This document shows, piece after piece, positions 36,801 through 38,678 of a stretch of DNA of 64,000 nt (the first letter of the stretch is position 1; each line of letters opens with the position of its first letter). The stretch lies in NCBI RefSeq assembly GCF_054482525.1, contig NZ_CM137006.1; one strand, 5' to 3'. A program made the position numbers.

Positions 36801-38678
36801 AAATCCGCTCCTTGTACCGCGAAAGCGACATCGTACCGGGAGAGCAGACCGCCACCAGCATACTGAAGCAGCGCACAAAAAATCTTGCGCCGTTGCCTCA
36901 TGCCCACCAGCAACAGAACCCACCACAGGAAAAGACGGTGGTATGCATCACCGTTGATCCGGAGTCTCCGGAATCTTTCATGAGGCGACCTAAACGTCGC
37001 CGTTGGCTAAATGAGAAATATACGCGCTGGGTGAAGACACAGCCGTGTGCGTGTTGTGGTCAGCCAGCCGACGATCCCCATCACCTGATTGGTCACGGTC
37101 AGGGAGGGATGGGAACAAAGGCCCACGATATTTTCACGCTACCGTTGTGCCGGGAACATCACAACGAACTTCATGCGGATCCGCTGGCGTTCGAAGAAAA
37201 GCATGGTTCCCAGGTTGATTTAATTTTTCGTTTTCTTGATCACGCCTTTGCAACCGGCGTGCTCGGGTAAAAGAGGTTACTGATGCGTATAGAGTTTGTT
37301 TTGCCTTATCCGCCGACGGTGAATACTTACTGGCGACGTCGTGGCAACACATATTTTGTATCAAAAGTCGGTGAGCGTTATCGCCGTGATGTGGCACTAA
37401 TTGTTCGCCAGCAGCGGTTGAAATTAAACCTGTCCGGAAGGCTGGCAATAAAAATTATTGCAGAGCCACCGGATAAGCGCCGCCGCGACCTGGACAATAT
37501 CCTGAAGGCACCACTGGATGCGCTGACGCATGCCGGACTTCTCATAGACGACGAGCAGTTTGATGAAATCAATATTGTGCGCGGACTGCCTGTTCCTGGT
37601 GGTCGGCTGGGGATAAAAATCACAGAACTGGAGTGCGCATGAATAACCAGTATTTACAGTTTGTGCGTGAGCAGCTCATTATCGCCACCGCTGATTTGAG
37701 TGGGGCAACAAAAGGTCAGCTTGAAGCCTGGCAAGAGAATGCCATGTTCGATACAGGGCGTTACAGGCGAAAAAAAATCCGGTACCGCGATGAAGTGACT
37801 GGAAAAATGATAACGCGGGATAATCCACCAATCCCGGGAAAGCAATCGCTGGCGAAGGGGACGTCAATTCCTCTGGTCAGTCCGGTTGAGTTTTCGACAT
37901 CATCGTGGCGGCGGGCTGTTTTGTCTCTTGAAGAACATCATAAAGCCTGGTTGTTGTGGTGTTACAGCGGGAGTATTTGTTGGGAATATCAGATCGCGAT
38001 AACACAGTGGGCGTGGAATGAATTTAATACTCAATCCGGTACCAGAAAAATTGCAGGGAAAACGCAGGAACGCCTGAAAAAATTAATCTGGCTGGCGGCG
38101 CAGGCAGTAAAAGCAGAACTTTTTGGTGGGGAAGGTTATGAATACCAGGAGCTGGCATTACTGGCGGGAGTGACAACTAAAAACTGGTCCAAAACATTTA
38201 CTCGTCACTGGGTTGCAATGAAACACATTTTTCACCGACTTGATAGTGAGGCTTTATTGTTTGTAATGAGAACACGTTCAAAACAAAAGGCGGCATTTTC
38301 AAAGCAAAGTATTGCAAAAGTAGATTGAAAGGCATATATTTCATGCAAATCTGATATTTTGCCGATTTTGTACGTGATGGCAAAAGCAAACAAAACCCGC
38401 CCACAAGCGGGTTTTTTGTGCCACTTATCTCGGATAGACATGGTGAATGCGCTAGTGGAGGAGATAAGGGTGATTTTTGAATGCTTGCAACATTGATTTC
38501 GTAACGTTATTATCCTGCGCCCGGCCCTTTAGCTCAGTGGTGAGAGCGAGCGACTCATAATCGCCAGGTCGCTGGTTCAAATCCAGCAAGGGCCACCAGC
38601 CGCCACTAGCTCATCAGGAAAGAGCGTCAACCCTTTAAGTTGAGTGTGCGAGGTTCGAGTCCCCGGTGGCGGTCCAGT

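Follow-up and report, generated by a model that had tools for sequence, protein, structure and literature searches.

A predicted Q82-type late switch followed by a tRNA cassette with its own candidate promoter in a lambdoid prophage

How would the late genes of a lambdoid prophage be switched on when four tRNA genes stand between the antiterminator gene and the lysis genes? The question is raised by a stretch of 64,000 nucleotides from contig NZ_CM137006.1 (RefSeq assembly GCF_054482525.1), here called the window, which carries such a prophage integrated beside a tRNA-Ser gene. A preliminary description of this DNA had placed a late promoter over the end of a Q-like gene, an intrinsic terminator some 55 nt beyond it, and a separate promoter in front of the tRNA genes. 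The analysis presented here points to a late control region of a lambdoid prophage with an antiterminator of the Q82 family, into which a tRNA cassette has been inserted as a transcription unit of its own; the probability of this reading is put at roughly 85%. The region can be dealt with in three parts: (i) the antiterminator, (ii) the late promoter with its pause element, terminator and short RNA, (iii) the tRNA cassette with its promoter and terminator.

The Q-like protein (229 residues) had been thought to fit no recognised Q family, a statement that no longer holds, since it gives a full-length match to the Pfam family PF06323 (E 8.3e-92; 307 bits, the cut-off being 25; positions 1-217 of the 220 in the profile). 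PF06323 is the family of the phage 82 antiterminator, Q82 (PMC9388147), and one of three Q families (PMC9388147; PMC7171158). The protein also matches PHROG 304, 'anti-termination protein Q-like' (E 9.5e-109), all 120 homologues listed carry PF06323, and the exact sequence recurs in 978 contigs or more under the name 'bacteriophage antitermination protein Q', the Q label being used in phage and Escherichia coli records as well. The position of the gene, between rusA and the lysis genes and with the integrase, a CI-like repressor and Cro upstream, fits the placement of Q in lambdoid phages. The window protein is a full-length member of the Q82 family, for which antitermination activity is predicted. 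A comparison with the sequences of the Protein Data Bank (PDB; 2026 copy) returned no solved relative by sequence; a weak match to the Ply protein (E 0.005) was judged spurious.

The promoter at the end of this gene has the layout described for the late promoter PR' of phage 82. As the preliminary description had it, TTGCAA and TATATT hexamers separated by 17 bp overlap the 3' end of Q, the first of them lying in the last Q codons. At 82 PR', sigma-70 recognises an extended -10-like pause element once the transcript is 21 nt long (PMC5001585). The pause there needs GCC at +15 to +17, an AT-rich stretch is present, and the polymerase halts at +25/+26 with U at +25 (PMC5001585). When the transcription start is placed at A38347, the window GCC falls at +15 to +17 and a T at +25, as published, and all the other features described for 82 PR' are found in register: TG at 38352-38353 (+6/+7), TATTTT at 38355-38360 (+9 to +14), GCC at 38361-38363, then ATTTT, and T38371. 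The Rfam models of the Salmonella RNAs isrJ and isrK begin at 38344 and 38345, near the predicted start. The Q-binding element of 82 PR' has been located between the -35 and -10 hexamers, inside the interval from -31 to +30 (PMC4914094), and the spacer of the window promoter is its probable counterpart. Phage 82, as described, and the window share a Q of family PF06323, a sigma-70 promoter at the Q end, a pause element, GCC at +15 to +17, an AT-rich stretch, U at +25 and a terminator. They differ in the pause element, which reads TATTTT in the window, whereas that of phage 82 is nearer to TATAAT than the lambda one (PMC5001585), and in the tRNA cassette that follows in the window.

The terminator, of the tR' type, starts 52-56 nt after the -10 hexamer, as claimed earlier. 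It has a GC core, CCCGC/GCGGG (38396-38411), closed by the loop CCACAA, an A/U extension of the stem to 38392-38415, and a run of six T residues at 38412-38417. The T-run partly overlaps the extended stem on the plus strand, so that the terminator scan listed the site on the minus strand; the hairpin is of the two-way type. Comparative evidence, experiments on homologues and the match to the layout of 82 PR' together uphold the proposal that promoter and terminator form the arrangement on which Q acts. Transcription from PR' to tR' would yield an RNA of about 73 nt. The 75 nt from 38347 to 38421 fold at -23.9 kcal/mol (z = -3.4) into a 5' hairpin and the terminator hairpin. A 45-residue open reading frame at 38359-38496 was set aside as a gene: it spans the terminator and has no support.

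The closest named RNA is IsrJ of the Salmonella prophage Gifsy-1 (Rfam RF01393; IsrK is RF01394). The Gifsy-1 antiterminator, AntQ, is 67% identical to the window Q, and the IsrJ locus has the same promoter and pause-element motif in a gap-free alignment, with a transcript of about 74 nt that ends in a terminator. IsrJ begins within 3 nt of the start that the motif predicts. The Gifsy-1 originals score 100.3 bits (isrJ, at 3047-3121 of the locus record) and 79.3 bits (isrK) with the Rfam models. Both RNAs are reported to be 'highly transcribed in all conditions' in lysogens without lytic transcription (10.1101/787010), so the promoter homologous to that of the window is active during lysogeny. 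In contrast with the window, Gifsy-1 has an isrK-orf45-anrP insert between Q and the canonical promoter, and the IsrK promoter is without the canonical pause element. Within that insert, the Rfam family 'a1,b1 targets of C4 antisense RNA' matches at 2198-2250, overlapping isrK (2211-2287), and a C4 RNA match at 2313-2396 lies ahead of orf45 and the antirepressor gene anrP. The isrK locus looks like a P1-type c4/icd/ant immunity module placed between AntQ and the canonical isrJ promoter (-35 hexamer at 3015).

Phage 434 (OL657226) provides a further relative. Its Q is 74% identical and labelled 'Q82-like', its promoter and initial transcribed region are nearly identical to those of the window, and a terminator is annotated at the matching place; unlike the window, it has neither the internal hairpin of the short RNA nor a tRNA cassette, and GTA replaces GCC after the pause element. 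The lambda PR'/6S/tR' region and the StxS locus of Stx phages follow the same logic: the late promoter is constitutive, the pause depends on sigma, the lysogen makes a short RNA that is terminated, and read-through depends on Q (PMC7547250; PMC9388147). Their Q proteins belong to other families (PF03589 and PF06530), unrelated to PF06323; the lambda pause is at +16, and the RNAs are 194 nt long (lambda 6S) or 258 nt and processed to 74 nt (StxS). No similarity in sequence was seen. The Pas small RNAs were likewise considered as a match for the locus and rejected, being neighbours of lambda-type Q genes (PF03589).

Conservation was followed in an alignment of 13 sequences behind Q82-family genes of 12 phages (Q 51-75% identical; both the IsrK and the IsrJ locus of Gifsy-1 are included), to which four phages with more distant Q proteins (28-36% identical; Hafnia, Morganella, E. 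coli and Citrobacter) were added. Across these 17 late regions, from hosts that also include Klebsiella, Enterobacter, Cronobacter and Salmonella, the segment from the -35 hexamer to the pause element is free of gaps in 16, at Q identities of 28-75%; the sole exception is the IsrK promoter. The sequence TTGCAAAA is invariant or almost so in the alignments of 13 and 16 sequences. The -10 hexamer reads [T/C/G]ATATT in 14 of the 16 family members, with the spacing fixed at 17 bp. TG-n-TAT recurs at a constant distance from the -10 hexamer in all 16 late regions anchored with a pattern that permitted TGN[T/C][A/G]T. The place of the promoter itself shifts: counted from the stop codon of Q, it lies between -14 and +87 nt. 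Because its placement varies and may be fully outside the Q frame, coding constraint on Q does not lie behind the conservation.

These positions combine into a composite motif, TTGCAAAA-N16-ATATT-N11-TGNTATNTT, which occurs once in the 64-kb window (38312-38360) and in none of 100 shuffles of it, even with 2 mismatches. A scan of IMG/VR with the motif gave at least 120 loci; here and in the other scans of viral-contig collections, counts are of the matches listed. A Q82-family gene stands directly upstream on the same strand in 99 of the 100 loci with enough upstream sequence. The exception (L222, motif at 6510) has the promoter motif and a terminator behind an antirepressor-like gene instead of Q, as in Gifsy-1. 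Downstream, a terminator-like site lies within 300 nt in all 106 loci with enough sequence, 103 of which predict an RNA of 50-89 nt. In about 60 of the 106, the predicted RNA is only about 50 nt long. The internal hairpin (UUUUGCC...GGCAAAA) is missing in phages 434, yong2, IME1369_02, Flotzy and phiNP, the last four having the terminator directly after the pause element, so this hairpin appears not to be required for Q action.

When the listed loci are grouped into 36 sequence clusters, positions that the search did not force are also seen to be kept. In the spacer, A at -23 is found in 35 clusters and A at -19 in 34, with further conserved A residues from -28 to -31; these likely form the Q-binding element. 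In the initial transcribed region, A+3 is kept in 35 clusters and T+4 in all 36. Next to the pause element, G+15, C+16 and C+17 are found in 35, 27 and 32 clusters, and around the predicted pause, T+23, T+25 and A+26 in 33, 28 and 31. Observed directly are the sequence elements, how they are conserved across the family, and that they are linked with Q82-family genes or with tRNA genes. Closer to the window, 80 viral contigs encode a Q of 97-100% identity. Two of them stop within the promoter; the remaining 78 keep Q, PR', initial transcribed region and tR' as one block. Behind tR' these contigs vary: the tRNA of the Ile2 type alone, Ile2 with the UUU tRNA, or the complete array Ile2-UUU-Thr-Gly. 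In one contig (L071, 3254-3605) with the same Q, PR' and terminator, homology stops right after the T-run and a small helix-turn-helix-like gene replaces the tRNAs. Only 17 of the 106 listed Q82-type promoters have tRNA genes behind them. As an insert, the tRNA cassette is optional.

The short RNA could be more than a by-product. That it is mainly a small RNA (sRNA) with a regulatory role in trans in the lysogen, like IsrJ or StxS, is a tentative proposal that would supplement the explanation given above, and on balance a doubtful one. It is favoured by full-length, sub-threshold matches to isrJ and isrK, both families of Hfq-binding sRNAs, by a stable fold that has a hairpin at the 3' end and a U-tail, by the reported need for IsrJ in efficient invasion (10.1101/787010), and by a study of the analogous Stx-phage RNA, StxS, in which it activates rpoS and the authors propose such RNAs as a general source of sRNAs (PMC7547250). 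The locus is also widespread: of 5426 complete E. coli genomes, 886 contain the 281 nt from 38250 to 38530 at a coverage of at least 80%, with 88 records at 99% identity or above; phage vB_EcoS-689R5 has the region at 99.7% identity, and E. coli SMS-3-5 has it without any difference. The conserved portion of the RNA is, however, the pause element, a signal in the DNA, and the remainder varies in sequence and length, the RNAs of about 50 nt consisting of the pause element and the terminator.

The tRNA cassette is introduced by a candidate promoter of its own, as suggested earlier. Its -10 hexamer ends 9 nt before the first tRNA (38523); position, hexamers and spacing were given correctly in the preliminary description, while 'near-consensus' was generous for a site that agrees with the consensus at 9 of 12 positions. 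The sigma-dependent pause element, the second terminator and the identity of the first tRNA, of the ileZ type and so tRNA-Ile(CAU) and not Met, had been absent from it. ARAGORN, on the anticodon CAT, calls this tRNA Met, a call that was rejected: the gene is identical to ileZ of Stx phages, RefSeq has it as tRNA-Ile, and it is of the Ile2 type that reads AUA.

The known counterpart is the ileZ-argN-argO cassette of Stx2 phages (933W, Sp5, 2851), with the same promoter hexamers, spacing and 9-nt leader and a similar terminator after the array. The ileZ gene of phage 2851 equals the first window tRNA at 76 of 76 nt, and CTTGCAACATTGATTTCGTAACGTTATTATCCT is identical too, while everything further upstream differs. 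The cassettes differ in content, Ile2-Arg-Arg in the Stx2 phages and Ile2-UUU-Thr-Gly in the window, and in setting, the window cassette standing behind a Q of another type and ahead of lysis genes rather than stx. The second window tRNA, labelled Lys(UUU), has its homologue in the Stx-phage gene argN (Arg-UCG), the body being the same and the anticodon loop altered. That loop, CCUUUAA, has C where U33 is expected; the gene has the weakest score of the four (44 bits) and is left unannotated in one phage record.

Do these tRNA genes need the late promoter? In 197 loci that have the 5' 42 nt of the first tRNA in common, and that fall into 15 classes by upstream sequence, TTGnnn-17-TAnnAT is kept in 13 classes, 9 nt before the tRNA (10 nt in one class). 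The hexamers carry 1.24 and 1.26 bits of information per position, the spacer 0.71 and the sequence upstream 0.39, with a sharp fall at the edge of the -35 hexamer, from 2.0 bits at -38 to 0.45 at -39. Behind Q82-type promoters, 16 of the 17 tRNA arrays listed have a TTGnnn-16..18-TAnnnT of their own just upstream. In the Sakai lysogen, a primary start that drives the tRNAs has been reported (PMC7547250), and the interval in question in prophage Sp5 holds TTGCAG-17-TATTAT, the evident candidate; substitutions are found only in its spacer. The hexamers and spacing kept across unrelated contexts, together with the Sakai start, favour the claim that the tRNAs are also made independently of late antitermination, possibly in the lysogen.

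A constitutive promoter ahead of lysis genes calls for a stop, and a second terminator is present, GCCCGCTTTTGCGGGT followed by TTTTTCTTTTC, which ends the tRNA unit 62 nt before the start codon of the holin gene. Hairpins with the same CGCTTTTGCGGG core lie behind the tRNA arrays of Stx phages. Between the last tRNA and this terminator runs a structured trailer with three long hairpins; the segment 38833-39065 has a minimum free energy of -80.9 kcal/mol (z = -5.5), and an Rfam search of the trailer gave no match. These hairpins may serve to process or to stabilise the precursor of the tRNAs or the late transcript.

A broader proposal joins both RNA products. The RNA of about 73 nt would be a trans-acting, Hfq-associated sRNA, a relative of IsrJ in about one-sixth of complete E. 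coli genomes, and the cassette a constitutive lysogenic-conversion module that alters the decoding of rare A-ending codons. This combination is unlikely, and a little less probable than an sRNA function by itself. The cassette in question has the composition Ile2-UUU-Thr-Gly, with an Arg-to-UUU anticodon change in its second gene. A check of the prophage for enrichment in ATA, ACA and GGA codons gave values of 4.9-5.6, 11.5-13.7 and 11.3-12.9 per 1000, to be read with the caution that the left part of the window is foreign as well and so no clean host baseline. If the proposal were true, the 'silent' late control region would be a source of host-directed RNAs in lysogeny.

It is distinctly less probable that the tRNAs have no promoter and are made by Q-dependent read-through from PR' alone, TTGCAA-17-TATTAT being kept for the processing of the 5' leader or by co-inheritance. 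The promoter match is of a common level, the -10 hexamer is only 9 nt from the mature 5' end and may partly belong to the RNase P substrate, and the compared loci are related, all having been chosen for the identical 42-nt 5' part of the tRNA. Against this, conservation peaks in the hexamers, is lower in the spacer and collapses upstream of -35, substitutions in the spacer leave its length at 17, and the start reported in the Sakai lysogen drives the tRNAs.

Several points weigh against the Q82-type late switch with its independent tRNA unit. The match to 82 PR' is a comparison with a verbal description (PMC5001585), not an alignment. PR' and the tRNA promoter each agree with the consensus at only 9 of 12 positions, and sites of this type number 8 in 4 kb against 4.0 +/- 2.2 expected; single-site matches being so common by chance, the case for both promoters has to come from comparison. 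The composite motif was derived from family members, and 99 of 100 among the matches listed measures specificity, not completeness. The GC core of tR' has 5 bp only. Although full-length, the isrJ match scores 24.5 bits where the threshold is 37, and the isrK match 22.7 bits where it is 50. On the side of the tRNA unit, the Sakai start is known from a verbal statement (PMC7547250), and a simple scan finds a terminator-like site within 450 nt of the array in only 109 of 159 loci. The weakest of all readings, in which the late promoter is fortuitous, the hairpin behind it merely ends the early Q operon and late transcription begins elsewhere, could draw on the low single-site score and on the -35 hexamer within the Q coding sequence, which could itself account for some conservation, but it is highly improbable: the motif is found with the same spacing fully outside the Q frame, up to 87 nt past the Q end, it is tied to Q82-family genes, it shows the features published for 82 PR', and no further promoter turned up in a scan of the stretch 38833-39123 ahead of the holin gene.

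Start sites, pausing, Q binding, read-through and lysogenic expression in this prophage most likely follow the phage 82 paradigm. Host RNA polymerase with sigma-70 would initiate constitutively at PR', sigma-70 would re-engage at TGATATTTT (+6 to +14), and the polymerase would scrunch to about +25 and pause there. Without Q, escape from the pause would lead to a stop at tR' and to the release of an RNA some 73 nt long, akin to IsrJ, lambda 6S and StxS. After induction, Q made from the early operon would bind DNA at its site within the spacer of the promoter and load onto the paused polymerase, and the Q-modified polymerase would run past tR' and the second terminator, with the four tRNA genes between them, to transcribe the genes for holin, endolysin, Rz and the structural proteins. 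The tRNA unit would start separately at its sigma-70 promoter, 2-4 nt before the first tRNA. This promoter is without a Q-binding or pause element, so its transcripts are expected to end at the second terminator, and the tRNAs would be made in the lysogen without expression of the lysis genes. The elements are collected in Table 1.

Table 1. Elements of the late control region and the tRNA unit, with landmarks of the prophage (window positions).
Feature	Position	Strand	Basis or remark
Integrase gene	25269-26294	minus	
CI-like repressor gene	30875-31522	minus	
Cro gene	from 31619		upstream of Q
YdaT-like protein gene	at 31843		occupies the cII position
Q antiterminator gene, 229 residues, Q82 family	37639-38328	+	TGA stop 38326-38328
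PR' -35 hexamer, TTGCAA	38312-38317	+	promoter scan; within the last Q codons
PR' spacer, 17 bp	38318-38334	+	putative site of the Q-binding element
PR' -10 hexamer, TATATT	38335-38340	+	promoter scan
Predicted +1, A	38347	+	7 nt past the -10 hexamer
Predicted ~73-nt PR'-tR' transcript, IsrJ-like	38347-38420	+	Rfam, sub-threshold, full-length
Predicted sigma-70-dependent pause element	38352-38363	+	extended -10-like TGATATTTT (+6 to +14), then GCC (+15 to +17)
Optional hairpin, UUUUGCC...GGCAAAA	38357-38385	+	minimum-free-energy structure
Predicted promoter-proximal pause, T A	38371-38372	+	+25/+26
Intrinsic terminator, tR' type	38392-38421	+	hairpin, then UUUUUUGUG
tRNA promoter, -35 hexamer TTGCAA	38485-38490	+	17-bp spacing
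tRNA promoter, -10 hexamer TATTAT	38508-38513	+	start predicted at about 38519-38521
tRNA Ile2-type (CAU), ileZ-type	38523-38598	+	ARAGORN, Rfam; RefSeq Ile
tRNA UUU	38600-38676	+	ARAGORN, Rfam; RefSeq Lys
tRNA Thr(UGU)	38679-38754	+	ARAGORN, Rfam; RefSeq Thr
tRNA Gly(UCC)	38758-38832	+	ARAGORN, Rfam; RefSeq Gly
Structured trailer, three long hairpins	38834-39016	+	perfect inverted repeats of 11, 14 and 9 nt
Second intrinsic terminator	39036-39062	+	between the tRNA unit and the holin gene
Holin gene, S21 type, first late gene	39124-39339	+	Pfam PF04971, E 1.4e-35

The genes around the switch run in the order DUF968, RusA, Q, four tRNAs, holin, DUF1327, lysozyme and Rz. In the RefSeq record inspected, Q and the tRNAs are annotated, and none of the cis elements of the late switch is. 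On the minus strand, TTGCAATACTTTGC at 38304-38317 agrees with the CII box of lambda, TTGYN6TTGY, and shares positions with the palindromic -35 hexamer of PR'; the phage 434 record has a CII site and a paQ -35 annotated at the corresponding position. A CII-box or paQ reading of this site was not adopted for the window, where a YdaT-like protein stands in the cII position.

Elsewhere in the prophage, cargo genes lie between the replication and nin regions (34030-35108). These are a gene for the epoxyqueuosine reductase QueH (34030-34716), an enzyme that modifies tRNA and is found here in a prophage with tRNA genes as well, and a hok/sok toxin-antitoxin pair (Rfam sok at 34784-34958, 110 bits; hok open reading frame at 34896-35108). 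A DicF RNA in the early region (29672-29723, minus strand) scores 76.7 bits, over its Rfam threshold. Also over their thresholds, near the left end of the window, are a C4 antisense RNA (3261-3349, minus strand, 62.2 bits) and an EFASI RNA (1701-1828, minus strand, 100.8 bits), which suggests another mobile element there.

All the parts of the region are of known kinds, a late switch of the Q82 type, a by-product RNA like IsrJ and a tRNA cassette of the Stx-phage type, and current understanding is left unchanged by them. What the comparison adds is that sequence by itself suffices to recognise the cis elements of a Q82-type late switch, through a composite motif that is almost perfectly tied to PF06323 among the loci listed. 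The mechanism of Q82 was named an open priority in 2022 (PMC9388147), and Q82 is the one Q family without a match among the 2026 PDB sequences; the invariant positions now mapped in the promoter, the spacer and the pause element could guide the design of constructs. For the lysogen, the prediction is that the 'silent' prophage would make a short IsrJ-like RNA and four tRNAs in a sizeable fraction of E. coli strains.

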